DNA of 64,000 nucleotides from an uncultured bacterium (GTDB lineage Bacteria > Actinomycetota > Acidimicrobiia > Spongiisociales > ZC4RG35): contig CAVWBT010000001.1 of the NCBI GenBank assembly GCA_963753285.1, forward strand, positions 115,194-179,193. The letters run 5' to 3'. Numbering within the stretch: position 1 is the stretch's first letter; each line of letters opens with the position of its first letter. The translations under genes were made by a program, and so were the position numbers. Positions 8,551-54,428 of the stretch are shown piece after piece. Below the pieces are notes generated by a model. It saw nothing but the letters and a program-made list of their open reading frames with translations. It did not search any database and was not told where the DNA came from.

Positions 8551-8884
8551 TCGCCTTGACCTCGACGGTGGCTCCCGGACGCACCACGATCTCCGGTTCG
8601 GGAAGGTCGAAGCCTCCACGGAGGGAGTCGATCACAGACTCTTCGTGGACGATGTCCTTGGCATCGACCTCCGCCTCGACCACGACTCGAACCAGATCGC
8701 TGATGTACTCCCCGCTCGGCGCGTAGTTGGCATCGGCCAACTCAGTGGCGAACCACTCCGCCCAATCCTCATCCCACGTCCAATGGGAGTACCCCAAAGG
8801 ATTCGTGCCGAACACATCATCGGGCTTGGTCCCCTCCGAGAGCACGACCGCTCGCCACAGAGTGACTTTGTCAGTCTCCGCCAT
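8477..8884 (-). CDS. Acidic hypothetical protein (135 aa)
   Basis: Coherent ORF. No recognised domain. Confidence 0.35.
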   Translation of the reverse strand: MAETDKVTLWRAVVLSEGTKPDDVFGTNPLGYSHWTWDEDWAEWFATELADANYAPSGEYISDLVRVVVEAEVDAKDIVHEESVIDSLRGGFDLPEPEIVVRPGATVEVKAIKLVDRTIGPAYFRRTPISRSWSL

Positions 8885-8911
8885 AAGGCGAATCCTACGC
8901 CGTGCTCTCTT

Positions 8912-9301
8912 TCACCAGATGTGTGACTCCGAGAGAGTTGAAGGTGGTCGAGGTTCCAACAGCGATGGGAAGAACGCCCCCTCACGCACCTTCGGGATCC
9001 TGAGTTCCACATCGCCTGCCGGCGTCGACAACACCCTGGGGCGGGCGCCATCGCGTTGGTTGGTTCTCGTGTCGGTTCGTTCGTGCGGTTTGGCGCCGAT
9101 CGCCGCCGACAACTCGACGTCGATCAACTCCTGCAACGCTTTCTGGACCAGATCCCGGAACAGAAACCTGACATCATCACCACCAAGCTCTGTGACGAGC
9201 TCAGCCAATCGGGCATCATGGCTCTCGGCCATCGTGCATCTCCTCTCGAGTCCACGGTCAATGAACTCGCTGAGAGTTGCACGGTGGCCCCACCGCGTCA
9301 C
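8912..9301 (-). pseudogene. IS256-family (Mutator-type) transposase N-terminal fragment (~129 of ~400 aa)
   Basis: LSAAIGAKPHERTDTRTNQRDGARPRVLSTPAGDVELRIPKVREGAFFPSLLEPR matches the conserved IS256 transposase N-terminus. The gene is truncated. Confidence 0.6.
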
Positions 9302-9344
9302 GGACCCCCGGCCCTACTTACACCACTCCATGGGACGCTCCCCT

Positions 9345-9600
9345 CCGCCCTGAGATGGGGGTGACGGCAACGCAACTGATTACCGGGCCAACCAATGCTC
9401 GACCGGATCGACCAGTACCCGCTGTCAGAGGACTCGGCGCTGTGGGGCAAGACGGTCACCGACGAACGGCACGCCCTGGTCGATGACGAAGCCGTCGCGC
9501 ACTGATCAGCGAGTCGAGGACACGAACGCCCATTCCGTCGAGTGCTCGGGATCCGCACGTGTAGAGCGGCCCGGGGTGGTCGGACAAGCGTCGCCAGCGC
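9345..9600. repeat. 255-bp dispersed repeat, copy 1 (near-identical to 24078-24332), adjacent to the IS256 transposase fragment
   Basis: Direct comparison of the two regions shows a near-identical nucleotide stretch. One frame ends ..MLDRIDQYPLSEDSALWGKTVTDERHALVDDEAVAH*. Confidence 0.7.
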
Positions 9601-10178
9601 CACCTTTGCGTTTTCGTACCCCACTCATCCCAGTGTCACTGACCCCGTCCGCCCAATGTCAAACACCGTGCCACGAATTGTCGCATCCCCGGCCAGACCC
9701 TCACGGTGTCCCCGAATCCGCCCAGTGGTCATCCGGTTCCAGGGCCACCGACCACGCTGCGCGTTCTCCCAGTATCTGGGGATCACCGGCATAATGCCGG
9801 ATCTGCTCGGAACGACGGGTTCGATAACGCTCCGGGTGTCGGGTGATATGTGCGGCTGGTCGATCGGTCTCTTGAGCAAAGACTGAATGCCTGACCGAAT
9901 CGGGTCGTGGGGTTCTTAGAGTGCCGAGCAAGCGACAGCGAGAGCGCTCATTCCTGATGAGGTTCACGTGCGTTTCCAGTCCCTCCTCAAAGTCACCCGC
10001 ATTGTCCAAGGAGAGCGCCCGCCCGGCGTTCATCACATGACCACAGTTGATGGGGTCGCGAAAGCGATAGACGTGAGCAACACGAAGGTGCCGCGCCTTG
10101 GTTATGGCGGCTGCTGATCCCCGAGGCGTTGTCGGCGGCTGCGGTGGCGCTGCTAACGAGTCCAGCACCCCTGCCTCG

Positions 10179-17099: not shown

Positions 17100-18450
17100 A
17101 GGGGTGTTTTGGGCGCGGTGGACCGGCCCGGCGGTGCCGGGTAGTGGCGTAGGGTTAGGAGCGGCTCGGGGTGGCTGCGCTGAAGAGCCGGTGATCAGGA
17201 TGTAATCCGGTCACGCAAGCGACAGAGACGTTCCTGTTTGCCCCCCGGGCCTTATCTGGATTGGTCGGCGTTCAGCTGGCGATAGACGACGTCGGAGAGC
17301 CGGCGTTTCAACGCCCTGATGGCCTCTTTGTTGGTTTTGCCTTCTGCGAGTTTCCGCTCGTAGAACACTCGGCCCTTGGTGTCGGGTTGGCGGAGCTGGC
17401 AGATGGCGATCAGATGCAACGCATGGTTGAGCATCCGGTTGCCTTTCGGGTTGAGCCGATGCCGTTTCCTCCCACCGGAGGACGCTTCGATGGGTGCGGT
17501 CCCGTTGTAGGCGGCGTAGTGGTGTTTGGTCGGGAACCGGGTGATGTCTCCGGTGTATCCGATCAGTAGGCCGGCGACGACCGGGCCGACACCGTATATG
17601 TCGGTGAGGCCGGTGCCGGAGGCTTCCACCGCCACGGCGAGACGCTCTCGAGATGCCTTCTTCTCCTTCTCCAGGCGCCGCACTTCGGCGAGGTGTTGGT
17701 GGGCGATGCGTTTGCGTTCTGTCTCCACCATGGTCTTGGGTCGGATCCGCCGCAGCATCCGTGATGCTTTGTGAGACGAGAGCTCTCCGCTCATTCCCCC
17801 AGGTAGCAGCACCGCCAACACCGCATGCAGTCTCGACGCCGCCTGGGTCTTCAAACTGGAGAGCTGTTTGTGGCGTCCAGCGAGCATCCGGAGCACCGCA
17901 ACATGATCTTCGACGGTGACTTGCCGCAACCCGTTCTGGTGCAGTGCGACGATCGCCACCGAACGAGCATCATTGGCGTCGTTCTTCTGTGACCTCCTCG
18001 AGTCGAGGACACGAGCCCGAGAGGCCAGAGTCGAAGGCACGTCGACGACATGCTCTCCAGCAGCGACCAGCTGTTGGGCCAGCAGGTAGCCGTGGCCGTT
18101 CGCCGACTCGACCGCCCAGCGGCGTTCACCGAACCGTTCCGCCCAAGCCAACAACTCCGAGAGTTGGCGTTTACTTGCCCGGACCTCGATTTCGGCGACA
18201 GGCTGATCGTCTCCGTTCATAGCCGCAGCCGCATGAGAACCCTTGTGAGGGTCGATACCGATAACCACCGACATGATCCACCTCCAGTTCGCTCTTGGGG
18301 GTCGGTGTGAGGGTGGAGGGCACTCCTGATAAGGATCCGCGTGCTACGCCTGTTTCGAGCCACACCACCCACCAGAACCCCAGGCGGATACAGCAGCTCG
18401 TTCGAAAGCCAACCCGCAAAGGGTGGCAGGCACTTAGAGAGCCAGACCCG
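17100..18450 (-). mobile_element. IS110-family insertion sequence (approximate ends)
   Basis: Intact 340-aa transposase. IS110 elements lack terminal inverted repeats, so the ends are not defined from sequence. Confidence 0.5.
17252..18274 (-). CDS. IS110-family transposase (DEDD type)
   Basis: MSVVIGIDPHKGSHAAAAM.. N-terminus. Conserved IS110 middle and C-terminal blocks (YGVGPVVAGLLIGYTGDITRF, AIRALKRRLSDVVY). Confidence 0.85.
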   Translation of the reverse strand: MSVVIGIDPHKGSHAAAAMNGDDQPVAEIEVRASKRQLSELLAWAERFGERRWAVESANGHGYLLAQQLVAAGEHVVDVPSTLASRARVLDSRRSQKNDANDARSVAIVALHQNGLRQVTVEDHVAVLRMLAGRHKQLSSLKTQAASRLHAVLAVLLPGGMSGELSSHKASRMLRRIRPKTMVETERKRIAHQHLAEVRRLEKEKKASRERLAVAVEASGTGLTDIYGVGPVVAGLLIGYTGDITRFPTKHHYAAYNGTAPIEASSGGRKRHRLNPKGNRMLNHALHLIAICQLRQPDTKGRVFYERKLAEGKTNKEAIRALKRRLSDVVYRQLNADQSR

Positions 18451-38909: not shown

Positions 38910-40052
38910 TCAGACCCAGTAGCCGTCCATGCGGGCCAGCACCTGGAGCATCGTCTCGTCCGAGCCCCCGCCGATGGCACCGAGCCGCTGGTCGCGGAAG
39001 AAGATCGACGTCCATGTCTCCTCCATGTATCCGATTCCGCCGTGGAACTGGAGACACCAGTCGGCCACCTCGCGACCGAGACGCCCGGCTTTCAACTTGG
39101 CGATCGTCGCCATCCGGGTCACGTCCTCGCCGCGCACGTGCTTGGCGGCGATCGTGTAGTTGTAGTTCTTGAGCAGATCCACCTCGGCGGCCAGCTCCGC
39201 CAGCCGGTACTGGAGGTACTGGTTCTTCAGCAAGGGCTTGCCGAAGGCGTGCCGCTCACGCAGATAGTCACGGGTGAGGTGGAGCGCTTTCTCGAACCCG
39301 GCCGCCGCCGAGTACGCCGCCCACATCCGTTCGATCACGAATTGCGCCATCTGCTGTTGGAACCCGGCGCCGATCGTCCCGATGGTGTTCTCGACGGGGA
39401 CTCTCATGTCGGTGAACGACAACAGGCCGGTGTCCGACGCCCGCATCCCGAGCTTGTCGAGTTTCTTCGACACCTCGAACCCGGGGCTGTCCGTCGGCAC
39501 GACGATCTGGCTCATCCCGGCGTAGCCGCCCTCGTCCGAGGTCCTGGCCAGCAGGCACAGCCAGTCGGCCTGCAGCGAGTTGGTGATATACATCTTCGAT
39601 CCGTTGATCACCCATTCGTCACCGTCCTGGACGGCCTTGGTGCGGATCGCGGCCACGTCCGACCCGGCGTCCGGTTCGGTGACGGCGACCGCCGCCACCA
39701 TCTCGCCGCGGATCGCCGGCGCCAGATACTTCTGTTTGAGCTCTTCGGTGCCGAACCGATTGAGTGACGGCGTCGCCATGTCGGTCTGGACGCCCAGCGC
39801 CATCCCGATCGAGCCGTGGGCGGCCTTCCCGAACTCCTCGGCGAGCACGACGGTGAACAGGTGGTCGGCATCGCCTCCCCCGTACTCCGACGAGTACTCG
39901 AGGCCGAGCATGCCGAGCGAGCCCATCTTCCCGAAGATGTCGTGGAGCGGCATCATCCCCTCGGCCTCCCACTCCTGGACGTTCGGGTTGATCTCGTTCT
40001 CGACGAACTCTGCGACCACCTTGCGGAACTGACGGTGCTCTTCGGTGAACAA
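38910..40052 (-). CDS. Acyl-CoA dehydrogenase
   Basis: TTG start after an aggagagg RBS (MFTEEHRQFRKVVAEF..). Internal TEPDAGSD..GSKMYITNS and GGIGYMEE ACAD motifs. Confidence 0.7.
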   Translation of the reverse strand: MFTEEHRQFRKVVAEFVENEINPNVQEWEAEGMMPLHDIFGKMGSLGMLGLEYSSEYGGGDADHLFTVVLAEEFGKAAHGSIGMALGVQTDMATPSLNRFGTEELKQKYLAPAIRGEMVAAVAVTEPDAGSDVAAIRTKAVQDGDEWVINGSKMYITNSLQADWLCLLARTSDEGGYAGMSQIVVPTDSPGFEVSKKLDKLGMRASDTGLLSFTDMRVPVENTIGTIGAGFQQQMAQFVIERMWAAYSAAAGFEKALHLTRDYLRERHAFGKPLLKNQYLQYRLAELAAEVDLLKNYNYTIAAKHVRGEDVTRMATIAKLKAGRLGREVADWCLQFHGGIGYMEETWTSIFFRDQRLGAIGGGSDETMLQVLARMDGYWV

Positions 40053-40164
40053 GTGCCACTCCTCTCCTGTCGGAACGAACTCTACGGCCGGCCGATCGTT
40101 TAGGAACGGACAGCCGCGGGAAGGTTCGGGACCTGAAACCAAACAAGACCAGGAAGTGATCAGC

Positions 40165-40689
40165 ATGCCAAGCCTGACCGGAGTCCACCAAGGCATCCAT
40201 CAGATATCGACGCTCGACGGAACGACCGCAGCGAGTTCAACCGCCGACATCCGTACTGCGCTCGCCGATGCCGACACCGATGTCAACGATGTCATCGAGA
40301 CGTTGATCGACGGTGTTCGCGGGTTCTCGGCTGCGGCCGCCCGAGCGGACAGCCCGATGCAGCAACAGTTCATGGCGATGGGCGCACGTCGCCGCAAGAC
40401 AGCCGGAGACATCATCCGTATCGCCGCCGACGAGCAGATGTCGCCGCTCACCCTCGACGACAACGGCACCGCAGCTGGAGCACTCCACCGCTCCTGGCTC
40501 AGCGTTCGGGAGGCGATTCAGGGCGATGCCGGACTCGCAGCAGCAGCGCTCACCGGCGAACAACACGCCAGGAAGAAGCTCATCGAACGCCTCGACGCGG
40601 GACTCCCCCCGTCCGTCGCCAAAGCCACTCGACGCGCGCTCAAAGAACTGGATGCCAACATCGCGAAGCTGGAGTCCATTTCGAGCTGA
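40165..40689 (+). CDS. Ferritin-like DUF2383 (PA2169-family) protein, paralog 1
   Basis: NDVIETLIDGVRGF..AAA..RIAADE..HRSWLSVREA pattern. Confidence 0.5.
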   Translation: MPSLTGVHQGIHQISTLDGTTAASSTADIRTALADADTDVNDVIETLIDGVRGFSAAAARADSPMQQQFMAMGARRRKTAGDIIRIAADEQMSPLTLDDNGTAAGALHRSWLSVREAIQGDAGLAAAALTGEQHARKKLIERLDAGLPPSVAKATRRALKELDANIAKLESISS

Positions 40690-40972: not shown

Positions 40973-41488
40973 ATGCCAAACCTGACTGGAGTCCATCAAG
41001 GAGTACATCAGATGAGCACCCCATACAGCGCAACCACGACACCCGATCTCACCGACGAGAAGGCCGAGTTCGAGTTGGCAGTCAATGACGTCATCGAGAC
41101 GATGATCGATGGCGTGCACGGCTTCGAAGCCGCTGCGGAAAGGGCCGACGGAGACCTCGAACAGCAGCTCACTTCGATGGGGACTCAGCGTCGCGACACC
41201 ACCGAAGACCTCATCCGGATCGCAGCCGATGAGGACATGAATCCTGTCATGCTCGACGACCAGGGAACGCCCTCCGGTGTCCTGCACCGCTCGTGGATCA
41301 GCATCCGTGATGCCGTCCAGGGCGATTCGGGAGTGGCTGCCGCCGCACTCAACGGCGAACAGCACGCCAAGGAGGAAGTCGAGCAGGCACTCGACGCGGG
41401 CCTCCCGGAGCCCATCGCCACGGTCGCACAGCGAGCCCTCGGCGAGATCGAGGCCAACATCTCGAATCTCGAACCGCTGACCAGCTGA
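40973..41488 (+). CDS. Ferritin-like DUF2383 (PA2169-family) protein, paralog 2
   Basis: MPNLTGVHQGVHQ.. N-terminus shared with paralog 1. Same motifs. Confidence 0.5.
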   Translation: MPNLTGVHQGVHQMSTPYSATTTPDLTDEKAEFELAVNDVIETMIDGVHGFEAAAERADGDLEQQLTSMGTQRRDTTEDLIRIAADEDMNPVMLDDQGTPSGVLHRSWISIRDAVQGDSGVAAAALNGEQHAKEEVEQALDAGLPEPIATVAQRALGEIEANISNLEPLTS

Positions 41489-43410: not shown

Positions 43411-43846
43411 GGCTTCACCCTACCGACGTCTCGGATCTCTTCTCGCTTCCGGCCGCGCGCACCTGAGCATCGCTGTTGAACCCCGACGGGAGGTGTCATG
43501 CCGTATCAACGAGAGGCCTGCTTCCCGCCGATGCAGCGGATCGCCTGGCTGCTGGATGCGTGGGTCTGCTCTTCGGCCCCTTCACAGGAAGATGTGCTGG
43601 TTCCGCCGTTCATCCCGTTGGTCGCTCTCGTCTGGATCGGTCACGACTGGCTCAAACGTGGACCCGTCGAGGACTGGAAGGATTCGCTGCCGCACTTCCG
43701 CCGACCGGGACAGACACCTTCGCCTCGTGATCAGCCAAGCCGACGCCATGTCCGTCTCGGAGGGCTAGTCACGTCGGGCTTCTGTGAATGGTCCTCCAGT
43801 TTTCTCGCGTGTCACGCCGATGGGAGGAAAGGCGCCGAAGAGTGGG

Positions 43847-45757
43847 ATGGCAGGAATGCGGATAGGAATCAATTGGGATCACAGGACCGGTAGACCCACG
43901 GCGATCCTCGCGATCCTCGCGATGATCTCGACGTTGTTCGCAGCCTCTGGGACCGCCGCCAGCACCGAATCCACCGGGACGATCGACGTCATCGTGCGCG
44001 AGGCGGCTCCACTCACCGATGCCGCCGAGTCCCTCGTGGAACGCCTCGGGGGCACGGTCCGTGACAATCTCGGCATCATCGGTGGATTCACCGCCACCGT
44101 CCCCGCCGACGCCATCGGGTTGCTCACCACCAGCCCCGACATCGAAGCGGCAACCCCTGACGGCACGGTCCAGTTCGCAGCGGCCGGATGGGATGATGCG
44201 ACAGCGCTCGGCGACATCGACTTCCGCAGCTACTCCGGATCGCTCTATCAGATCACCCGGACGACCAAGGCCGTCAATGCCTGGGGCAAGGGATACACCG
44301 GATACGGCGTGGACGTTGCCCTGATCGACACAGGCGTGGCTCCATTGCGATCGCTCCCGGCGTCGAGAGTCGTCAACGGGCCCGATCTCTCCTTCGAATC
44401 CCAGAACCCCGATCTCCAGTACCTGGACTCGAACGGGCACGGCACCCACCTGGCCGGCATCATCGCCGGGACCGACGTGTCGCTCGACTTCACGAGCCCG
44501 GGTGACAGCAGTGTCTTCATCGGCATGGCACCGGGCTCGCGGATCATCAGCCTCAAAGTCGGCGCCCACGACGGCTCTGTCGATGTGTCGCAGGTCATCG
44601 CCGCCATCGACTGGGTCGTGCAACATCGCAACGACCCGGGCTTCAACATCAGGGTCCTCAACCTGGCGTTCGGGACCGATGCGACCCAGTCGTATGTCCT
44701 CGACCCCCTCTCGTACGCCGTCGAGCAGGCATGGAAGAACGACATCGTCGTGGTCGTGGCTGCCGGAAACGATGGAAACCAGTCCCCGCTTCGGAACCCG
44801 GCGATCGATCCCTTCGTCATCGCAGTCGGATCCGGATTCGCCAGCGACTTCAGAGCCGACAACAACACGAGGGTCGTCTATGACTCGCTGTCGGACTTCT
44901 CCAACTGTGGGACGTCGGAGCGCGGAGTCGACATCCTGGCCCCTGGCAAATCCATCACCAGCCTCAGGACACCCGGCTCGTACGCCGACGTGAACAACCC
45001 CAAGGCGCGAGTCGGCGCCGACTACTTCCTGGGTTCGGGCACCAGCCAGGCCGCTGCGATCGTGTCCGGCGCAGCAGCGCTCATCATCGACGCATGGCCC
45101 GACATGTCTGCCGACGAGGTGAAGTACCTCCTGACGGCCAATGCCACGCCGGTCAACGGGGCCTCGGCGACCTGCCAGGGCGCCGGAATGATCGCTCTGG
45201 ACTTCCTGGCCAGCAACACCAAGAAGGCCCCGAACACCAGGGGAGCGACCCAGACGTTCGTGCCATCGGTTGGCGACGGAACCCTCGAGGACGCTCGCGG
45301 CACACATCACGTCGAGATGCAGAACGCCGAGGGAAAGAACGTCGTCCTCCGCGGCGAGCAGGACATCATGGGAAGCCCCTGGGTCGGCTTCAACACCACG
45401 ACCACCGTGTGCGCCAAGGAGGGGAAGGGCAAGAACGCCGTGATCGCCTGTACCGACGTGCTCGAACCCGTCGAGACGCTGTGGGACGGCGGCAGCTGGA
45501 ACGGTCGGAGCTGGTCGGGGACCTCGTGGTCCGGAGACACGTGGTCCGGTCTCAGCTGGTCCGGGACCTCGTGGTTCGGCTTGAGCTGGTCCGGCCTGAG
45601 CTGGTCCGGTCTGTCCTGGTCCGATCAATCCTGGTCCGGGCTGTCCTGGTCGGGTAGGTCGTGGTCGGGTAGCTCGTGGTCGGGCGCCTCGTGGTCCGGT
45701 CTGTCCTGGTCCAGCGGCGGCACCGCAATTTCCGACCAGGGTGTGCGCTGGAGCTGA
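43847..45757 (+). CDS. Secreted subtilisin-like S8 serine peptidase with I9 propeptide and C-terminal (SWSGx)n repeat tail
   Basis: Catalytic triad contexts VALIDTGV, HGTHLAGIIAG, GTSQAAAIVSGAAALI. Signal peptide. The 3' end encodes about 18 SWSGx pentapeptide repeats. Confidence 0.75.
   Translation: MAGMRIGINWDHRTGRPTAILAILAMISTLFAASGTAASTESTGTIDVIVREAAPLTDAAESLVERLGGTVRDNLGIIGGFTATVPADAIGLLTTSPDIEAATPDGTVQFAAAGWDDATALGDIDFRSYSGSLYQITRTTKAVNAWGKGYTGYGVDVALIDTGVAPLRSLPASRVVNGPDLSFESQNPDLQYLDSNGHGTHLAGIIAGTDVSLDFTSPGDSSVFIGMAPGSRIISLKVGAHDGSVDVSQVIAAIDWVVQHRNDPGFNIRVLNLAFGTDATQSYVLDPLSYAVEQAWKNDIVVVVAAGNDGNQSPLRNPAIDPFVIAVGSGFASDFRADNNTRVVYDSLSDFSNCGTSERGVDILAPGKSITSLRTPGSYADVNNPKARVGADYFLGSGTSQAAAIVSGAAALIIDAWPDMSADEVKYLLTANATPVNGASATCQGAGMIALDFLASNTKKAPNTRGATQTFVPSVGDGTLEDARGTHHVEMQNAEGKNVVLRGEQDIMGSPWVGFNTTTTVCAKEGKGKNAVIACTDVLEPVETLWDGGSWNGRSWSGTSWSGDTWSGLSWSGTSWFGLSWSGLSWSGLSWSDQSWSGLSWSGRSWSGSSWSGASWSGLSWSSGGTAISDQGVRWS
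45485..45722 (+). repeat. 15-nt tandem repeat (agctggtccggNctg)n inside the S8 protease CDS, encoding (SWSGL)n
   Basis: Read directly from the sequence. Confidence 0.7.
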
Positions 45758-46173
45758 ACTCCCCACACGAACCAGCCATTGGCCCTCGGCGCGCTCAACA
45801 GTGACGACTCCAGCCTGTCTGGCGGGTTGGTCGGATTCCCAGGACGATGGACTGGAATCAGCGCGATCGGGCCGTTTCGGCGGTTATCGGGGCCTCGAGT
45901 TGTTCGAGCACGACGATCAGCCCGTGCGTCGAGCACATGTACATGCCCCGGATCACCAGCGATGCATCGCGATCACAAGAGCTGCAGCGAATGACACGAA
46001 TGTGATTACTCATGTGTGATTCATCGGATGCGCACCTGTCGGCTTGAGGACTTCTTCGCAGGAACCCGGCAAGATGCCGCCCTGCTGAGCGATGACGACT
46101 TCGATGGAACCAGCACATGGAACGGTCCACTGCCGGCGCCGCCGCGAGTGGTCCAGCCGTGATGCTCCGTCGG

Positions 46174-46305
46174 TCAGCCAGCCAACAGGTGAACGACAGT
46201 CACGAGCCCCGCCACGGCAAGAGCGATGTCACCCAGGATCTCTGCGCGTCGATTCTCTGATTCGCCCGAATTCTGTTGGTCTTCCGTGATCTTCGTCTCT
46301 TTCAT
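46174..46305 (-). CDS. Tiny single-TM peptide (~44 aa), family B copy 3 (..RRAEILGDIALAVAGLVTVVHLLAG)
   Basis: gaggga RBS. C-terminus near-identical to the 2277-2390 peptide. Confidence 0.4.
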   Translation of the reverse strand: MKETKITEDQQNSGESENRRAEILGDIALAVAGLVTVVHLLAG

Positions 46306-46547
46306 GTCCATCCCTCTACCCGTCGGCACGACGAACGAGATCTTCAGGCCAAGCCGGACGCCGCTGGAGTGCGCGCCCCCGAACTGGATCAGGTGAGCGA
46401 GAGAGGTACGATTCCCCCCACCAGAGACATCAGTGCCGATGCTGTCGGGGTTGGATCCCGATTCGAGGCATCGGCGCTCGGTTCGGTGCGCGAGCCCCAG
46501 GACGGGACTCACGCCCACAATCGTCAATGATGACAGGCACAATCCCC

Positions 46548-46620
46548 GCCCGAGTAGCTCAGGGGATAGAGCAACTGCCTCCTAAGCAGTAGGTCGCAGG
46601 TTCGATTCCTGCCTCGGGCG
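46548..46620 (+). tRNA. tRNA-Arg (anticodon CCT)
   Basis: Cloverleaf by eye: acceptor stem GCCCGAG/CTCGGGC, D-arm AGCTCAGGGGATAGAGC, anticodon loop CTCCTAA, T-arm GCAGGTTCGATTCCTGC, discriminator G. Confidence 0.8.
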
Positions 46621-46635
46621 CAGTGCCTTTGCTGG

Positions 46636-47010
46636 CCGACTTCTGGACAAGGCCGCAACGGCTTCGGAGGGAATCACGAGTCCAGAACAGACGCCGGTCG
46701 GCCAGGGCTGCCGCACTCGACCCCCGCCTCCGATCCCGCACGCCAGACACCCGGCCGGCCGACTTCTGGACAAGGCCGCAACGGCTTCGAAGGGAATCAC
46801 GAGTCCAGAACAGACGCCGGTCGGCCACGGCTGCCGCACTCGACCCCCGCCTCCGATCCCGCACGCCAGACACCCGGCCGGCCGACTTCTGGACAAGGCC
46901 GCAACGGCTTCGAAGGGAATCACGAGTCCAGAACAGACGCCGGTCGGCCACGGCTGCCGCACCCCCGCCTCAGATCCCGCAGGCCAGAAGCCCGGCCGAC
47001 CGGCTTCTGG
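46636..47010. repeat. 123-bp tandem repeat, 3 copies plus a degenerate partial fourth, immediately 3' of tRNA-Arg; each unit has an imperfect hairpin (ggccgacttctggac...gtccagaa..ggtcggcc)
   Basis: Period measured as 46636 to 46759 to 46882 (123 nt each). Copies are more than 95% identical. Confidence 0.8.
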
Positions 47011-47096
47011 AAAGTGCCGCCCGACCGGCGAGGGAAACGATCGGACACCCCTCGACGCTCCGCTCCGTTCGATGAGCGCTCAGCCGGGAGCAGCGT

Positions 47097-48029
47097 TCAG
47101 TGGTGATCCTCGGGCGGCGGCACAACACCCCGCTGCTCGGCGATGCGCCAGTAGGCCTGTGGGATGCGGTACGTGTCGAAGTTGAAGAGCGTCTGCTTGT
47201 ACGAGTTGGTGAGATCGAGATCGACCCGAGCCACGATGACCTCGTCACCGGTGGTCACGGCCTGGGTGATGATCTGCCCCGACGGTGCAACGATCGCCGA
47301 GTGCGCCAGCGACTCGACGCCTTCCTCGAATCCGCCCTTGGCCACGCCCACCACGAATGTGCCGTTCTGATACGCCCCGGCCTGCATCACGAGGTGATTG
47401 TGAAAGGCCTGGAGCGAGTTCTGCGTCGGATCGGGTGCGTAGTGAAGCGGCGTGTTGTATCCGATGAGGATCACCTCCACTCCCTGGAGCCCCATCACCC
47501 GATAGGTCTCGGACCAGCGCCGATCGTTGCAGATGGCCATGCCGAAGAGCCCGCCGAAGGCACGCCACACCGGGAAGTCGTCGCCCGGCTCGAAATAGTG
47601 GCGTTCGGCGTGCTGGAAGTCTCGCCACTGCTCGTCTTCGGAGTGTCCGGGGATGTGGACCTTCTTGAACACCCCGATGGTCCGGCCATCCCGCTCGACC
47701 AGGTGGTAGACGTTGAATCGCCGTCCGTCCTCCTGCTTCAACGCGTAGCCGAGAGCGAACCCGACCCCGAGCCGACCGGCCTCGTCCCAGAGGGGCTTGG
47801 TGAATCGGTTCGGCATCTCCGTCTCGTAGTAATGGTCGGCCTCTTCGAGTGGGGCATGCCAGCGGGGAAAGAACGTGGTCAGAGCCAACTCGGGAAACGC
47901 CACGACACTCGCGCCTTGCTCCGCTGCGTCGCGCAGGAGGTGGATCAGTCGCTCGACGACGTCGTCCCGAGAGTGATCGCGCTGCACCGGCCCCATCTGG
48001 GCGGCGGCGAGGGTGAGGATACGGCTCAT
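47097..48029 (-). CDS. N-carbamoyl-D-amino-acid hydrolase (D-carbamoylase)-like nitrilase-superfamily enzyme
   Basis: Many blocks match Agrobacterium DCase from memory (VVFPELALTTFFPRWH, KKVHIPGH, FQHAERHYFEPGD, ICNDRRW, YRVMGLQGVE, GYNTP, MQAGAYQNG, IVAPSG). Confidence 0.75.
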   Translation of the reverse strand: MSRILTLAAAQMGPVQRDHSRDDVVERLIHLLRDAAEQGASVVAFPELALTTFFPRWHAPLEEADHYYETEMPNRFTKPLWDEAGRLGVGFALGYALKQEDGRRFNVYHLVERDGRTIGVFKKVHIPGHSEDEQWRDFQHAERHYFEPGDDFPVWRAFGGLFGMAICNDRRWSETYRVMGLQGVEVILIGYNTPLHYAPDPTQNSLQAFHNHLVMQAGAYQNGTFVVGVAKGGFEEGVESLAHSAIVAPSGQIITQAVTTGDEVIVARVDLDLTNSYKQTLFNFDTYRIPQAYWRIAEQRGVVPPPEDHH

Positions 48030-48237
48030 CGGTGGTCCACCTCCGGTGGGTTCGCCCGACCAGCGCGGCACCTCGGAGTCATTGCTACGTTTGCACATCC
48101 GGGGCCGCCGGACTGTGAGCCGCGAGTGGTCAGACTCGGTCAGCCCACATTGTGCAGAGCGCCGAACACGCAGTCAATTGGGCGAACCGGTTCCGGGAGC
48201 CGGCGCACTCCCCCTCGTGACACGACCCAGCTCGGCG

Positions 48238-49179
48238 TCAGGGCGTGATGTGGGTTCCGGCGTCGCCTGCGAGGGCAGCTTCGATGTTCCCGGGCGTAGT
48301 GATGATGGCACGCCGGCCCCCGCCCTCGAGGAAGTCGATCACGGCGGCGATCTTCGGCTTCATCGAGCCCGCCTTGAAGTGGCGTCCCTCTGCGAGGTAC
48401 CGCTTGGCGTCGCCGAGGCTCAGTTCACGAACGAACCGCTGATCCGGGGTCCCGAAGTCGAGTGCCACCTGCTCGATGGAGGTGGAGATCAACAACAGTT
48501 CGGCGCCGATGTCGTTCGCGAGGAGAGCCGAAGCGTGGTCCTTGTCGATGACCGCAGGCACGCCAGTGAGATCACCCGCTTCGTCGGCCACGACGGGGAT
48601 GCCACCGCCGCCCGCGGCGATCACCACGAACCCACCATCGAGGAGGTGTCGGATGGCATCGATCTCGACGATCCGGATGGGAGCGGGCGAGGCCACGACC
48701 CGACGCCATCCTCGATCAGCATCCTCGACCACGTCCCAGCCTTCACGTTCATGGCGATCGCGAGCCTCCGCCTCGGTGAGGAACGACCCGATGGGTTTGG
48801 TCGGCGTGGTGAACGCCGGGTCGTCCGGGGACACCTCCACCTGGGTCACCACGGTGGCGACCGACTTGTCGATGCTCAGGCTTCGGAAGTCCTTGAGGAT
48901 GTTCTGCTGCAGGAGGTAGCCGATCGCCCCCTGGGTGTCGGCCACGCACACCTCCAAGGGGACTTCGTGCAACTCGTGGCGGGCGAGGTCCGATCGGCGC
49001 AGGATGAATCCCACCTGGGGGCCGTTGCCATGCGTGATCACGACGTCCCATCCGCCGGCGACCATCGCCGCGATGTGATGATCCGTCTCGGCGGCTGCGA
49101 GGTACTGATCCTGGACGGTCTGATGTTGGGGGTCGGTGATGAGGCTGTTTCCGCCTATCGCCACCACAGCGCGTGGCAT
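48238..49179 (-). CDS. arcC: Carbamate kinase
   Basis: AVVAIGGNSL N-terminus, ITHGNGPQVG, and VVIAAGGGGIPVV amino-acid-kinase motifs. Confidence 0.8.
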   Translation of the reverse strand: MPRAVVAIGGNSLITDPQHQTVQDQYLAAAETDHHIAAMVAGGWDVVITHGNGPQVGFILRRSDLARHELHEVPLEVCVADTQGAIGYLLQQNILKDFRSLSIDKSVATVVTQVEVSPDDPAFTTPTKPIGSFLTEAEARDRHEREGWDVVEDADRGWRRVVASPAPIRIVEIDAIRHLLDGGFVVIAAGGGGIPVVADEAGDLTGVPAVIDKDHASALLANDIGAELLLISTSIEQVALDFGTPDQRFVRELSLGDAKRYLAEGRHFKAGSMKPKIAAVIDFLEGGGRRAIITTPGNIEAALAGDAGTHITP

Positions 49180-49221
49180 CGGTGTTCCTTTCCTGCCCGG
49201 TGCTCTCCAGTGGAGAGCCTG

Positions 49222-50196
49222 TCACATGGTGAGCGCCATGACCGCTTTCTGGACGTGGAGTCGGTTCTCGGCCTGGTCGTACACGGCGCTCTGGGGACCG
49301 TCGATCACGGCATCGGTCACCTCGATGTTGCGATCGGCCGGCAGCGGATGCATGTAGATCGCGTTGGAGCCGGCCAGCGCCATCCGGTCCTCGTCGACGA
49401 TCCAGTCCTGGTAGCGGGCGCCGATCGATGCCGATTCCCCTTCGTCGGTGGTGGTGAGCATCGCCCCCCACGACTTGGCATACACCACGTCGGCGCCGCG
49501 GATGCCATCCTCGAAGCTGTCGGTCACCTCGAACGAGCCGCCCGCCGACTCGGCATTGGCTCGGGCGTGAGCAACGACCTCCGGCATGAGGTCGAACTCG
49601 GGCGGACGGGCGAGGCGGACCTGCATGCCGAATCGAGTGGCGAGCAGAATGAGGCTCTGCGGGACCGAAAGCGGCTTCTGGTAGCTGGACGCGTAGGCGT
49701 AGCTCACGTCCAGCGTGACCTCCCTGGGGTCACCCTTCTTCTCGACGATCGTCAGAAGGTCGGCGAGCGCCTGGAACGGGTGATACCGGTCGCATTGCAT
49801 GTTGAGGACCGGAACACGCGAAGCCTCGGCGACATCTCGGATGTAGGAATTCCCCATCCCCCAGTCCACCTGGCGGATGGCGATACCGTCGTTGTACCGG
49901 CCCAGGATCACGCCGATCTCCTTGGCGGTGTCGCCGTGAGCGATCTGAGTGGACTTCGACTCGATGAACTGGGCGTGCCCGCCGAGCTGGGCCATACCCG
50001 CCTCGAAGCTGGCTCGGGTGCGAGTGGATGAGAAGAAGAACAGCATGGCCAGGACCTTGTCCCGCAGCATCGGATGTGGGGTGCCCAGCGCCCGGTCCAT
50101 CTTCAGGCGTTTGGCGACCTCGAGTACGGTCTCGAGCTCTTCGACGGTCCACTCCTGGGTCGTGATCATGTCACGGCCCCGCAGTCCGGTGATCAT
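49222..50196 (-). CDS. Ornithine-carbamoyltransferase-like transcarbamylase with atypical motifs (HPLP instead of HCLP, SWG instead of SMG)
   Basis: STRTR carbamoyl-phosphate motif and HPFQ. HPLPADR and KSWGAM replace the canonical OTC motifs. ATGA overlap with the upstream gene. Confidence 0.65.
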   Translation of the reverse strand: MITGLRGRDMITTQEWTVEELETVLEVAKRLKMDRALGTPHPMLRDKVLAMLFFFSSTRTRASFEAGMAQLGGHAQFIESKSTQIAHGDTAKEIGVILGRYNDGIAIRQVDWGMGNSYIRDVAEASRVPVLNMQCDRYHPFQALADLLTIVEKKGDPREVTLDVSYAYASSYQKPLSVPQSLILLATRFGMQVRLARPPEFDLMPEVVAHARANAESAGGSFEVTDSFEDGIRGADVVYAKSWGAMLTTTDEGESASIGARYQDWIVDEDRMALAGSNAIYMHPLPADRNIEVTDAVIDGPQSAVYDQAENRLHVQKAVMALTM

Positions 50197-51158
50197 TCTG
50201 CCGCTCCCAACACGAGGGCGAGCAAGGCCATCCGCATCACGACCCCGTAGTAGGCCTCCTGCCAGTACCGAGCGTGACGAGTCGCATCCACTGTCGGGGG
50301 CAGTTCGTCCATTCGGGGCAACGAGTGGATGACGATCGCGGACGACTTCGCGTCTGCGAGCACGTCGTTGTCGACGACGTAGTTGGCCGGCGTCGCGGCC
50401 ACCTCCCCGCCGCGCTCGTCCCTGCCCTTGGTGTAGTCGGGCTGTACGACCGGCTCGATGAACACGATGTCGGCCCGGCCGATCACCTGGTTCACGTGTT
50501 CGGCCCGCTCGATGTGGAGGCCACGGCCCCGAACCTCATCGATGAGGCCGTCGTCGGGCACGTACTCGTCGGGAGTGATGTAGATCAGCTCGGTGTCGAA
50601 CTGGGTGAGCGCGTAGGCAAGCGAGTGCATCGTGCGCATTCGCCAGTCGCCCACGGCCACGAAGGTCTTGCCGTCGACACTCCCCAGTTCCCGTGTGATG
50701 GTGTACAGATCCGTGAGGACCTGGGTGGGGTGCTCGCCCCAGCCATCTCCACCGTTGATGATGGGAATGGACGCCCACCGGGCCGCCTCGTGCGGCGCAC
50801 CCTTCTGAGGGTGGCGCATCACGATCACATCCCCGTAGTACTCGAGCATCCGAACGGTGTCCTTGATGCTCTCCTGGTAGAAGTCGCCGGCCCGTGTCAT
50901 CTTCGGGTCCGCGAACCCCGTCACGACGCCACCCAATCGCAACATCGCGGATTCGTGGGCGAGCCGCGTTCTCGTCGACGCCTGGAAGAAGGCGCTCACC
51001 AGAATCTTGTCGCTCAGCAGGTCGAGTCGGCGTCGCTCGCGGGGAACCGGCTCGAACCGGTCGGCAACCGCGAAAACCTGCTCGAACTCGGCGCGTTCGA
51101 ATCCGTTCAGCGACAGAATGTCGCGCCCCGCAAAACTTCGCATGCCAGCTCCTGTCAA
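50193..51158 (-). CDS. Aspartate-carbamoyltransferase-like (PyrB-like) transcarbamylase
   Basis: FFQASTRTRLAHESAMLRLGG matches PyrB FFEASTRTRLSFE. Also HPTQ and HSLPR. Confidence 0.65.
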   Translation of the reverse strand: MTGAGMRSFAGRDILSLNGFERAEFEQVFAVADRFEPVPRERRRLDLLSDKILVSAFFQASTRTRLAHESAMLRLGGVVTGFADPKMTRAGDFYQESIKDTVRMLEYYGDVIVMRHPQKGAPHEAARWASIPIINGGDGWGEHPTQVLTDLYTITRELGSVDGKTFVAVGDWRMRTMHSLAYALTQFDTELIYITPDEYVPDDGLIDEVRGRGLHIERAEHVNQVIGRADIVFIEPVVQPDYTKGRDERGGEVAATPANYVVDNDVLADAKSSAIVIHSLPRMDELPPTVDATRHARYWQEAYYGVVMRMALLALVLGAAE

Positions 51159-51248
51159 TGGACTTTCGACAGCTTGGGACGCCGACCCGGTCTTTCCTAG
51201 TGACGTTGGTCCCGATGCGGAGGGCGGCTTCGGCCGTGTTCCCCGGAG

Positions 51249-51985
51249 CTAGCGAGGACCGAAGAGATCGGAGAGGTCGGGCATCTGCTGTTTCGCCCCA
51301 CTGCTCTGGCCGGCCTGGCCCGCGAGTCCTCCGAGGATGTCCAGCAGGCCTCCGCCTGGGGAGGAGTCCCCACTCGACGGACCGCCGCCGAGCATCCCAC
51401 CCAGGATGTCACCGAGACCCCCGCCGGAAGATCCGGCGCCTGCCGCCGAGCTGCCGCCGAGCAGGCCACCGAGCAGATCGTCGAGACCGCCGCCACCCGA
51501 ACCCCCTCCCCCGAGCATCCCGCCCAGGATGTCGCCCAGCCCGCCCGACGATGACGGGCGCCTCGCCTCCGGCTCGACACCGCTCCTCCGAGCTTCTTCG
51601 AGAGCCACGCCATCACCATCGGCGCCAGCATCGGAAGCAGGTTCTCCATCAACGAGCTGCCACCCGTTTTGGCCCCGAGCCGATTGACCACGCCGTCGGT
51701 CCGATCGCCGAACACGTGACCGACGATCTTCTTGCCGTCCTCGGGATTCACCCGATCGACGACGTCTTCGGCATCGAGCACCGATCCGTCGTGGTCCTTG
51801 ATCAGAGCGCCGAGCAGCGAGGTCGCTTCGTCCTGTGAACGGTGGGCGTTGGCGTTCATTCCCTGCAGCAGCGCAGGCAGGGCGAGCTCGGTCGCTTGCT
51901 CGACTTCCTCACGGGTAGCGCCCAGACGGGCAGCGAGTTGGTCGAACGGGATCGTTTCGCGCAGCTCCTCGTTGATGTCTTCCAT
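51249..51985 (-). CDS. DUF937 (YidB-like) protein, frameshifted near 51590
   Basis: N-terminal helical part (MEDINEELRETIPFDQ..MVMAWLSKKLGG) is in one frame. C-terminal GGLGDILGGMLGG repeats are in the +1 frame. Confidence 0.5.
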
Positions 51986-52109
51986 CGAGTGCCTCCTCGT
52001 CGTGTGGGTCTTCGTCGAACCTACCCGTCTCTGGACCGCACTGTGACGTCGAACCCGGCAACCGGAGTGCACGCCGGGTTGACGATGCTCGAACGCCGGT
52101 AGTCTGGCG

Positions 52110-53538
52110 TTGATGGCCCAGACCTTCTACGAACCACTCTCCTATCTCGATTCATCGTTCCTCGCGCTCGAGACGCGCACGACACACATGCACGTGGCGT
52201 CGGTGGTGCTCTTCGAGGCAGGTCCGCTGACGAAATCGGACGGCGGGATCGACATCCAGCGGATCAAGGATCACATCGAGGCGAAGCTCCAGTACATCCC
52301 CCGGTATCGCCAGCGGCTGGCATTCGTGCCATACAACCGCGCCCCGGTGTGGATCGACGACGACGCCTTCAACTTCGACTTCCATGTTCGTCACACCAGC
52401 CTCCCGAGACCGGGAAACGAAGGGCAACTGAAGGCGCTGGCGGGACGCATCGTCTCCCAACAGCTGGACCGCAGCAAGCCGCTGTGGGAACTCTGGATCG
52501 TCGAGGGCCTCGAGGAGGGCAAGTTCGCCATCATCGCCAAGATCCATCACTGCATGATCGACGGGATCTCAGGAGTCGACCTGACGACCATCCTCCTCAA
52601 TGTTGTTCCCACCGAGGAGATCGAAGAGAAGGTGCCGTGGGAAGCCCGTCCGGCTCCGACGCCGGCCGAACTGGCCGTGTCCGAACTCGCTCGCTCGACG
52701 CGGAAGCTGATCGACGACCTGACCTCAATCACCGAGACGGCCAAGACCGGTATCGGGAAGATCGGAACCACAGCGGCGAAGCTGTCGGCCGCAGCCGACT
52801 CGCTGCGATCTGGATGGCTGTCTCAGTCGACGAGCACGCCGCTCAACCCCGACATCGGCCCGAATCGGCGGTTCGACTGGACCGAGATGCCGCTGGACGA
52901 GGTCAAGCACATCAAGAACGCCCTCGGGGGCACCGTCAACGATGTCGTGCTGGCGATCACGGCGGGCGCGATCCGCCATTTCCTCGAAGTCGAACGGGGA
53001 TTCTCGGCCGATGGCATCGAATTCCGGGCGATGGCACCAGTGTCGGTTCGCAGACCCGATCAGAAGGGATCGCTCGGCAACCAGGTCGCCATGTGGCTCG
53101 TCCACCTGCCGGTCGATGAGCCGGATGCGGTCAAGCGACTGCATGCGATCGCAGCCGAGACCGACCACCTCAAAGAAGTCGAACCAGGCGCTCGGAGCGG
53201 CGACGCTCGTCGACCTGAGCAGCGGGACCCCGCTCCCGTTGCTCAGCATCGCCAACCGCGTGGCCTCCAGCACCATCCGGCCGTTCAACATGACCGTCAC
53301 GAACGTGCCCGGCCCGCAGTTCCCCATGTATCTCATCGGGTCCAAGATGCTGGCCAACTACCCGATCGTGCCGCTCTGGGCCCAACACGGCGTCGGCCTC
53401 GCCCTCTTCTCCTACGACGGGCGCCTGCTGTGGGGAGTGCACGCCGACTACGACACGGTGCCCGACACCGAGGCGTTCGTCGGTTCACTCCATCACAGCT
53501 TCAAACTGCTGACGAATGCAGCCGACGCTTCAAGCTGA
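52110..53538 (+). CDS. Wax ester synthase/diacylglycerol acyltransferase (WS/DGAT), frameshifted near 53175
   Basis: HHCMIDGISG active-site motif. C-terminal third (..NQALGAATLVDLSSGTPLPLLSIANRV..NVPGPQFPMYL..) continues in another frame after AIAAETDHLK. Confidence 0.65.
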
Positions 53539-54428
53539 GGCGTCGACGACTCGATCACCAGCCTGGGCGGGTCTCATCGGTGCGGTCATCATCTCGTTCA
53601 GCGCGATCTTCTTCGAACTGTCCGGCGCCGATCCACTCACGGCGACCGGCTTCCGGATGGTGTATGCGCTGCCGGTCCTGCTGGCACTGTGGTGGCGGAT
53701 CAGGGACAGGGATTCGAGACCGACGAGCGACCGGATGATCGGACTCCTGTCGGGGGTGTTCCTGGCGATCGACGTCGTCGTCTGGCAGTCGTCGATGGCA
53801 TACATCGGGACCGGCCTCGCCACGTTGATCGCCAACAGCCAGGTCGTGATCGTGCCGCTCGCAGCCTGGCTGCTGCTCAGCGAGCGGCCCGGCCGAGCAG
53901 TGATCGTTGCGCTTCCGATCGTCCTGACCGGCCTGGCGCTCATCACCGGCCTTGGGAAGCCAATCCACCTTCGGCACGCGCCCGGTGCTCGGCGTCACCA
54001 TGGCGTTCAGCGCGGCGTTCCTCTATTCCGCCTTCCTCATGCTGTGGCGGCGAAGCAACATCCGGCTCGTCCCGACCGCCGGCCCGCTCCTCGATGCCGT
54101 GGCGGGCGCCGCCATCGTCACCGTCGCGTTCGCCCTCCTCACCGGGCGCGGCGACCTGACACCTTCGTGGCCGACCCACGGCTGGATCCTGGCGCTCGCG
54201 CTCGGACCACAGGTCGTCGGGTGGCTGTTCATCGGACACTCCATGCCGAGACTGCCCTCGGCCTACACGTCCTTCATCATCCTGCTCCAGCCGACCCTGA
54301 CCCTGCTGTGGGGTCGACTGATCTTCGATGAGACACCGTCAGCGCTGCAATACGCCGGGGTCGCGGTCGTGCTGGCGGGCATCGTGCTCGCCACCAGTTC
54401 GGCCGTGCGCATCCGTCCTCAGGCCTGA
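53516..54428 (+). CDS. EamA/DMT-family transporter, frameshifted near 53965
   Basis: First five TMS in one frame (..FRMVYALPVLL..). The remainder (..GVTMAFSAAFLYSAFLML..) is in another frame. Confidence 0.5.

Follow-up and report, generated by a model that had tools for sequence, protein, structure and literature searches.

Two transcarbamylase homologues beside a carbamate kinase in an uncultured acidimicrobial bacterium: a candidate ATP-yielding variant of the reductive urate pathway

Introduction

In the ygeW-xdhD region of Escherichia coli, the closest described system to the locus considered here, urate is reduced to 2,8-dioxopurine, which is dearomatised by YgfK, and SsnA and HyuA open both rings, which leaves (R)-2,3-diureidopropionate. 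One of the ureido groups of this compound is lost to phosphorolysis by YgeW, and YqeA turns the carbamoyl phosphate into ATP; the other is cleaved hydrolytically by YgeY, and YgeX converts 2,3-diaminopropionate to pyruvate and ammonia (10.1101/2025.04.24.650524; PMC12507026). The intermediates are proposed to be R, i.e. D-configured N-carbamoyl-alpha-amino acids (10.1101/2025.04.24.650524). Here we describe a cluster of four genes, termed A to D, on a 64,000-nucleotide stretch of DNA from an uncultured bacterium of the Acidimicrobiia (Actinomycetota; Spongiisociales; ZC4RG35), hereafter the window (assembly GCA_963753285.1, contig CAVWBT010000001.1, positions 115,194 to 179,193). Two of the genes encode transcarbamylase homologues, one a carbamate kinase and one a homologue of N-carbamoyl-D-amino-acid hydrolase (D-carbamoylase). 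It is likely that this module belongs to purine or urate catabolism and makes ATP via carbamoyl phosphate. A narrower assignment, which we hold with moderate confidence and with minor variants counted in, is that the cluster forms the ureido-cleaving, ATP-yielding end of a reductive (2,8-dioxopurine-type) urate pathway, in which B and A would carry out a dual phosphorolysis of 2,3-diureidopropionate.

This reductive breakdown of uric acid was solved only in 2025 and is being explored for urate-lowering probiotics. A preliminary description of the present DNA had named the E. coli ygeW cluster as the closest analogue of the four genes, which our analysis bears out, and had called it uncharacterised, which those studies have overtaken (10.1101/2025.04.24.650524; PMC12507026). 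In their 2025 studies, Liu et al. and Li et al. assign the attack of YgeW to different ureido groups, and a commentary lists the order of ureido cleavage and the stereochemistry of the intermediates as open questions (PMC12990295). Earlier, Barba et al. (2013) had defined a class of 'pseudo-ATCases', named after aspartate transcarbamylase (ATCase), and noted one in a single genome, Nocardioides sp. JS614, next to a ygeW homologue, xdhABC and hyuA, with no function proposed (PMC4016543).

Results and Discussion

Four intact genes for carbamoyl metabolism

Gene A (50193..51143, minus strand) encodes a 316-aa ATCase-like carbamoyltransferase with the Pfam domains OTCace_N and OTCace, and gene B (49222..50196, minus strand) a 324-aa carbamoyltransferase with the same two domains, predicted from motifs, tree and context to be a short form of YgeW. 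Gene C (48238..49179, minus strand) encodes a carbamate kinase of 313 aa and gene D (47097..48029, minus strand) a D-carbamoylase homologue of 310 aa with a Pfam CN_hydrolase domain. All four open reading frames (ORFs) are intact and clearly coding, with a G+C content of 0.82-0.86 at third codon positions (GC3) against 0.43-0.45 at second positions (GC2), and homology E-values across the four genes run from 1e-64 to 1e-110.

The preliminary description had reported four co-directional minus-strand genes, the two transcarbamylase genes overlapping by ATGA, and had quoted the motifs FFQASTRTR and HSLPR for A and HPLP and SWG for B. The genes and every motif are present (SWG as part of KSWG), and the overlap reads from the sequence at 50193..50196 on the minus strand, where the A stop codon lies over the B start codon. 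Two starts have been moved. That of A is placed at ATG 51143, not TTG 51158, because a ribosome-binding site, AGGAG, lies in front of it at 51153-49 and homologues of A are 316-318 aa long. Likewise D is taken to start at ATG 48029, not 48098, since GGAGG precedes it at 48044-40 and D-carbamoylase homology begins there.

The assignment of C rests on the NCBIfam model NF009007, on which it reaches 382 bits where 266 are required; on TIGR00746 it falls just below the cut-off (352.3 vs 358.25). C is 46% identical to E. coli YqeA.

Relatives of the locus carry purine catabolic genes

B has 506 species-level matches in GTDB genomes, and the best 80 of these (73-95% identical) form the 80 loci counted throughout. 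They come from Acidimicrobiia, Nitriliruptoraceae, several classes of Chloroflexota and a small number of further bins. Gene A is found in 62/80 loci and the kinase also in 62/80. Two arrangements occur: A, B and C are co-directional in 37 loci, and in 24 loci C-A face GntR-B divergently.

The recurrent neighbours of B in these 80 loci correspond to the genes found in the ygeW-xdhD region of E. coli. They include xanthine dehydrogenase (XDH) subunits whose closest E. coli relative is XdhD (792 aa aligned at 43% identity), either a homologue of YgfK (1050 aa at 37%) or a luciferase-like F420 reductase, and SsnA-like (38%) and 8-oxoguanine-deaminase amidohydrolases, the latter of which forms urate. 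Homologues of HyuA (42%; 4/80 loci), YgeY (43%) and YqeA (52%) are found as well, together with a MocA-like nucleotidyltransferase (MobA-like NTP-transferase domain), adenine and adenosine deaminases, PnrA-type nucleoside ABC transporters and a GntR/UTRA regulator. Two pyridoxal-phosphate (PLP) enzymes of the PALP fold are also conserved, one ThrC-like and one of 487 aa. Among loci retrieved through homologues of A, L087 has the order XDH - A - B - kinase - PALP - PALP - XDH, read in one direction. In L083 and L084 the gene immediately ahead of A-B-kinase encodes an F420-type luciferase-like oxidoreductase (8870-9874); the group has a complete XDH set on either side, and the oxidoreductase matches the alternative 2,8-dioxopurine reductase suggested for Chloroflexota (PMC12507026).

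The same neighbourhoods bear on an oxidative purine route, in which A would be a ureidoglycine carbamoyltransferase acting on allantoate, B would act on ureidoglycolate or oxalurate, and C would again make ATP. Such an enzyme has a precedent in Rxyl_2847 of Rubrobacter, likewise a pseudo-ATCase, which lies in a purine cluster with a carbamate kinase next to it and phosphorolyses allantoate in vitro (PMC4016543); moreover, allantoate carries two ureido groups, as does 2,3-diureidopropionate. However, uricase, 5-hydroxyisourate (HIU) hydrolase, 2-oxo-4-hydroxy-4-carboxy-5-ureidoimidazoline (OHCU) decarboxylase, allantoinase and allantoicase are all absent from the named neighbour clusters and from the 25 commonest of the 109 Pfam families of other neighbours, and the neighbours that are found (YgfK or the F420 reductase, SsnA-like, HyuA-like, YgeY and PLP enzymes) are typical of the reductive route. 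A carries HSLP and not the HPLA of the Rxyl_2847 subgroup, and B-type enzymes occur in canonical ygeX-hyuA-ygeY clusters, as described below. We therefore give the oxidative route little weight.

Gene A is a pseudo-ATCase by sequence

In ATCases R167 is a ligand of the alpha-carboxylate, and residues of the K84/R229/Q231 type are ligands of the beta-carboxylate. The best solved relative of A is the ATCase of Pyrococcus abyssi (1ml4, E=5e-73), and the carbamoyl-phosphate site is intact in A: S52-T55 (STRT), R105 (MRH) and H134/Q137 (HPTQ) are all in place, and the motifs STRTR, MRH and EHPTQ are invariant in 34 members of the A family. R167 is also kept. K84, R229 and Q231 are gone, and the family-invariant KMTRAGDFYQES and EPVxQxDY stand in their place; in the alignment TRIQKER of the P. 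abyssi enzyme lies opposite EPVVQPD of A, and KKGE opposite FYQE. The HP[LG]P motif of ATCases reads HSLP, and four acidic residues of A (D87, E91, E230 and D236) are invariant in the family.

On family models, A scores 240.4 bits on TIGR00670, just above the cut-off of 236.95, and falls below the cut-off of NF002032 (215.6 vs 263). In a neighbour-joining tree, a simple distance method with few references and 200 bootstrap replicates (given as bipartition frequencies), the A family joins the ATCases in 100% of replicates, and the E. coli and P. abyssi ATCases pair to the exclusion of A in 94.5%, so that A falls outside the genuine ATCase pair; tight clustering with genuine PyrB, which the preliminary description had named as a case against its view, is not seen. 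A shares with the pseudo-ATCases of Barba et al. (PMC4016543) the retention of STRT and HPTQ, an altered HP[LG]P motif (H[ST]LP or HPLA in that class), the loss of RxQ, a position outside the genuine ATCases and a non-pyrimidine context, here purine catabolism. The region of the RxQ motif reads PVV or VQx depending on the alignment, with HMMER and MAFFT differing. By these features A is a 'pseudo-ATCase' and not a plain PyrB. A plasmid search with A returned genuine pyrB genes only, at about 37% identity. AlphaFold2 models of A and B, built on 34-sequence alignments, were of low quality, with mean pLDDT values of 68.8 and 65.1 and less than 50 in the N-terminal domains, and were not used.

Ureidosuccinate, which had been put forward as a substrate, is unlikely to be one for A, from which the residues for the beta-carboxylate of aspartate have been lost.

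Gene B resembles a short form of YgeW

B falls below every NCBIfam cut-off for ornithine transcarbamylase (OTC), N-acetylornithine transcarbamylase (AOTC), putrescine transcarbamylase (PTC) and YgeW. Its best solved relative is the OTC of Pyrococcus furiosus (E=3e-64), followed by AOTC and YgeW. On OTC models it scores 265.7 against a cut-off of 306 and 254.8 against 280.85, and the OTC motifs are absent: AKSWGAML lies opposite TDVWASMG (DxxxSMG), HCLP reads HPLP, and KSWG is present. The AOTC model NF003384 gives 257.4 against a cut-off of 288. AOTCs are marked by an extended 80s loop with Glu92 and by Lys302 (PMC4581275); B has no such extended loop and carries Glu at the Lys302 position (RRNVKATD opposite ADRNIEVTD). 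Its 80s loop is OTC-like with Gln (TQIAHGDT), combined with an AOTC-like C-terminal domain, the pairing that marks YgeW-type enzymes.

By BLASTP, B is 35% identical to E. coli YgeW (188 bits) and 31% identical to ArgI (153 bits). Moreover, B and YgeW have in common the motifs SYxKPLSVPQ (SYQKPLSVPQ in B), N[ML]QCD (NMQCD in B) and YAKSW and a VDWGxGN insertion. In the neighbour-joining tree the B family groups with YgeW in 81% of replicates, with OTCs in 0% and with AOTC alone in 1%.

A route through PTC and AguB, as in agmatine catabolism, was also considered and set aside: there is no deiminase, B scores 230 against 500 on the PTC model, and D scores 101 against 410 on the AguB model.

In a cultured organism, a short transcarbamylase of the B type is found in the context of a canonical cluster on the Clostridium botulinum plasmid pC2C203U28 (NC_012219.1, 60457-85428; L088). 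There a 327-aa transcarbamylase, 50% identical to B and 36% to YgeW, lies with dpaL, hydA and YgeY behind two XDH sets, a MocA-like gene and xdhC. The products of dpaL and hydA are 54% identical to YgeX and 56% to HyuA, respectively, and that of the YgeY gene 71.5% to YgeY. Because the transcarbamylase stands beside orthologues of YgeX, HyuA and YgeY, the short B-type enzyme fills the YgeW slot of this cluster. The same 50%-identical match is present on a plasmid of C. novyi and on two further ones of C. botulinum. In the 25 kb of pC2C203U28 that were viewed, the annotation lists no carbamate kinase. Taken together, phylogeny, motifs and gene context suggest that B is a short-form, isofunctional relative of YgeW.

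With both transcarbamylases described, an anabolic reading can be weighed, in which A would be PyrB and B ArgF or ArgF', with their carbamoyl phosphate coming from a synthetase of the carbamate-kinase type, as in Pyrococcus. Among solved structures, Pyrococcus enzymes are indeed closest to A and B, A just passes TIGR00670, and databases name homologues of A as ATCase and those of B as OTC or AOTC. Against this stand the loss of the second-substrate residues from A and of DxxxSMG and HCLP from B, the lack in B of the lysine and glutamate loop of AOTCs, the failure of A on NF002032 and its place outside the genuine ATCase pair. Neither the window nor the 80 related loci contain pyrI, pyrC or carAB, the 80 neighbourhoods hold no pyr or arg genes at all, and no arginine genes are linked to the cluster; what is found is a purine catabolic context with a GntR regulator. 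The preliminary description had named such pyrimidine or arginine neighbours as a case against its own view, a catabolic cluster drawing ATP from carbamoyl phosphate, and that view is upheld by the linkage to the kinase and by two transcarbamylases of which neither is a plain PyrB or ArgF. The anabolic reading is thus very unlikely.

Gene A occupies the place of YgeY

Across the 80 loci A is present and YgeY absent in 62, YgeY is present and A absent in 11, both are never found together, and seven have neither. This exclusivity gives a Fisher p of 3e-9, uncorrected for phylogeny, and at least four of the seven loci with neither gene have almost no sequence upstream of B. The position is also the same: A lies immediately upstream of B in the 37 co-directional loci, and YgeY-type loci read GntR-YgeY-B-(kinase)-PALP-PALP. 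Where A and B are divergent (24 loci), the kinase is in one operon with A and not with B, an arrangement that speaks for A as a producer of carbamoyl phosphate.

These observations suggest the following scheme. As YgeW does in E. coli, B would phosphorolyse one ureido group of 2,3-diureidopropionate, and A, in the genomic place of YgeY, would phosphorolyse the second ureido group where YgeY hydrolyses it. C would make ATP from each of the two carbamoyl phosphates, so that one purine could yield as many as 2 ATP where the E. coli scheme yields 1. The probable target of A would be the alpha-ureido group of 3-amino-2-ureidopropanoate. This compound is carbamoyl-aspartate with an amine (ammonium) for the beta-carboxylate, and we infer that it suits A because R167 is kept, the beta-carboxylate ligands are lost and the acidic residues D87, E91, E230 and D236 are gained. 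In its most specific form, which we put forward only tentatively, A may be a kind of transcarbamylase not characterised before, descended from ATCase and acting by phosphorolysis on the alpha-ureido group of R (D)-3-amino-2-ureidopropanoate; with its short YgeW-type partner it would yield two ATP per ring by substrate-level phosphorylation, in a system widespread in environmental Actinomycetota and Chloroflexota (506 species-level B matches) and not confined to gut anaerobes.

The arrangement of A and B also speaks to the heteromeric transcarbamylase suggested in the preliminary description, and to a further reading of A as a non-catalytic partner of B. The ATGA overlap in the window does suggest translational coupling. 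Yet that overlap is not kept in relatives (L083, for example, has a 7-nt gap), the two genes are divergent in 24/62 loci, B occurs without A in 18 loci, and identity between A and B is only about 25%; in A, moreover, every residue that binds carbamoyl phosphate is invariant, which points to a catalytic enzyme. We regard either reading as highly improbable.

Gene D and a hydrolytic alternative

D had been called D-carbamoylase-like, and it proves to be a true homologue of D-carbamoylases, with matches to PDB 6le2 (E=7e-110) and 1fo6 (E=5e-95). The D-carbamoylase motifs FPELAL, KVHIPGH (K-HxPGH) and ICNDRRW are kept, comprising the Glu-Lys-Cys catalytic motifs and the CNDRRW substrate-binding motif. 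It is found together with A-B-C in 12/80 loci. In L001, L041, L043 and L064 it is the next gene after C, and L064 has it lodged between the kinase and XDH.

The simplest role for D would be that of an irreversible hydrolytic alternative at the alpha-ureido step, acting on an R (D) N-carbamoyl-alpha-amino-acid intermediate in a manner analogous to YgeY or to UacY of Clostridioides difficile. This role is suggested because the intermediates are proposed to be R and because C. difficile swaps YgeW for a D-aminoacylase-type hydrolase.

Relatives that carry D (L003, L041, L043, L064 and others) have a second CN-hydrolase that resembles AguB and beta-ureidopropionase (244 bits against the AguB cut-off of 410), and this enzyme might hydrolyse the beta-ureido group. 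The same relatives have a 375-aa PALP gene and an adenosine deaminase gene beside A-B-C. The window has none of these three genes.

Weighing the proposed pathway

A number of points weigh against dual phosphorolysis by B and A in a reductive urate pathway. The roles of A, B and D are deduced from sequence and gene context. B scores far below the cut-offs of both YgeW models (182.6 vs 500 on TIGR03316 and 194.9 vs 453 on NF005538), is without the four insertions and extensions of YgeW, including the C-terminal extension, and has HPLP instead of H[AVC]LP. ATCases use L-aspartate, and the proposed intermediate is R (D). If A and B are both phosphorolytic, the need for D is unexplained beyond an 'alternative route'. 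Moreover, the YgeY-type loci fall into essentially a single group of Chloroflexota in the B tree, close to A-type members of that phylum, and the switch between A and YgeY may reflect only one to three events.

The upstream part of the pathway raises further points of this kind. Within the 64-kb window there are no XDH, YgfK, SsnA, HyuA or PALP genes and the module is detached, so the link to purines is made by homology to relatives with 75-95% identical proteins. In addition, YgeX orthologues are absent from the 80 loci and HyuA orthologues occur in only 4/80, which means that the upstream chemistry may differ. The same two observations, together with the conservation of two other PALP enzymes and other amidohydrolases, would be in keeping with intermediates that differ from those of E. 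coli, and hence with a second arrangement in which the purine context is the same and A acts at another step, on the free ureido group of a cyclic intermediate (ureidomethyl-hydantoin or 5-ureido-dihydrouracil) or on some other ureido compound, and is not a one-for-one replacement of YgeY. Two findings count against it: A and YgeY swap exclusively, at the position immediately upstream of B, and the R167 kept in A is easier to reconcile with an open-chain alpha-ureido acid than with a hydantoin. We consider action at another step unlikely, and continue to favour A as the replacement of YgeY.

Operon structure and flanking sequence

The genes had been described as a four-gene operon, a view that fits A, B and C, which are tightly packed with a 4-nt A/B overlap and a 42-nt gap between B and C. 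D is set apart by a spacer of 208 nt, which in the relatives L041, L043 and L064 is only 55-83 nt. A consensus scan of this spacer found a promoter-like site, TTGACT-17-CACAAT (48149..48177, minus strand), one site against 0.4 expected, a consensus match that is in itself no evidence of function. D may have its own promoter, and the unit may be a three-gene operon plus one gene rather than a four-gene operon. An Rfam scan of 45800-52600 returned a tRNA only and no riboswitch, and an inverted-repeat scan gave nothing informative.

The flanks of the cluster hold a tRNA-Arg gene, a tandem repeat, subtilase, DUF937 and WS/DGAT genes, major facilitator superfamily (MFS) transporters and other genes. 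Just before the D stop codon, a 123-bp unit is repeated 3.2 times (46634-47020, 94% matches) directly downstream of tRNA-Arg(CCT) (46548-46621), with spurious translation in several frames. On the other side, three neighbours look frameshifted: the DUF937 gene (51197-52072, minus strand), which continues in another frame as the Gly-rich ORF 51249-51608; the WS/DGAT gene (52110-53738, plus strand), whose real C-terminus lies in a second frame at 52942-53538 (plus strand); and an EamA-like transporter gene (53516-54428, plus strand) that is divided between two frames. Indel errors of long reads could account for this, or the genes could be pseudogenes. Elsewhere in the window we note an S8 subtilase gene (43784-45757, plus strand) whose product ends in a long run of SWSG/LSWSG repeats, two tandem paralogues of approximately 170-214 aa and similar sequence (MP.LTGVHQG.HQ...) at 40045-40689 and 40973-41488 (both plus strand), and an IS110-family transposase gene (17252-18274, minus strand; DEDD_Tnp_IS110 and Transposase_20 domains).

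Comparison with known systems

Full-text literature searches found no paper on a two-transcarbamylase version of the reductive urate pathway. With a transcarbamylase candidate for each ureido group and a D-specific carbamoylase homologue, the cluster could help to settle the cleavage order and the stereochemistry of the intermediates, and its separate enzymes offer a means to test regiochemistry, D configuration and maximal ATP yield. Moreover, among Acidimicrobiia and Chloroflexota, thousands of database entries probably stand for catabolic enzymes that have been misnamed as 'aspartate carbamoyltransferase' or 'ornithine/N-acetylornithine carbamoyltransferase'.

The arginine and agmatine deiminase pathways, which pair a catabolic OTC or PTC with carbamate kinase, share with this locus the conversion of a ureido compound and phosphate to carbamoyl phosphate and thence to ATP; the window locus, in contrast, has two transcarbamylases, no deiminase and no ornithine or putrescine motifs. 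Rxyl_2847 of Rubrobacter xylanophilus (pseudo-ATCase subgroup 1) is similar to A in being an ATCase-derived catabolic transcarbamylase with a carbamate kinase next to it, within a purine cluster, and phosphorolyses one of the ureido groups of a di-ureido acid. It differs in its HPLA motif, its uricase and allantoinase neighbours, its oxidative route and its allantoate substrate. Pseudo-ATCase subgroup 2, that of Nocardioides sp. JS614, is like A in keeping STRT and HPTQ, in having H[ST]LP for HP[LG]P, in the loss of RxQ and in its adjacent YgeW-type and XDH genes; at the RxQ position it has Gx[SC], whereas A has PVV or VQx, a comparison made on published motifs. As for D, it is a close homologue of the D-carbamoylase of the D-hydantoinase/D-carbamoylase pair (1fo6, 6le2). 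UacY of C. difficile is a hydrolytic substitute for YgeW that acts on a D-configured ureido acid and has an amidohydrolase fold, whereas D has the CN-hydrolase fold.

Lastly, the E. coli ygeW-ygeX-ygeY-hyuA-yqeA / ygfK-ssnA-ygfM-xdhD cluster resembles this locus in that a transcarbamylase and a carbamate kinase draw ATP from a purine-derived ureido intermediate, a role here predicted; relatives of the window locus have homologues of XdhD, YgfK, SsnA, HyuA, YgeY and YqeA, and B groups with YgeW. The window locus departs from it in having a 324-aa B that is free of the YgeW insertions and a second, ATCase-derived transcarbamylase at the place of YgeY. Two other PLP enzymes replace YgeX in the relatives, a D-carbamoylase homologue has been added in this sub-lineage, and the module is detached in the window. 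The components and their logic are already known; what had not been described is a second transcarbamylase in exchange for YgeY, a change that would double the ATP yield, together with the short form of YgeW and the added D-carbamoylase.

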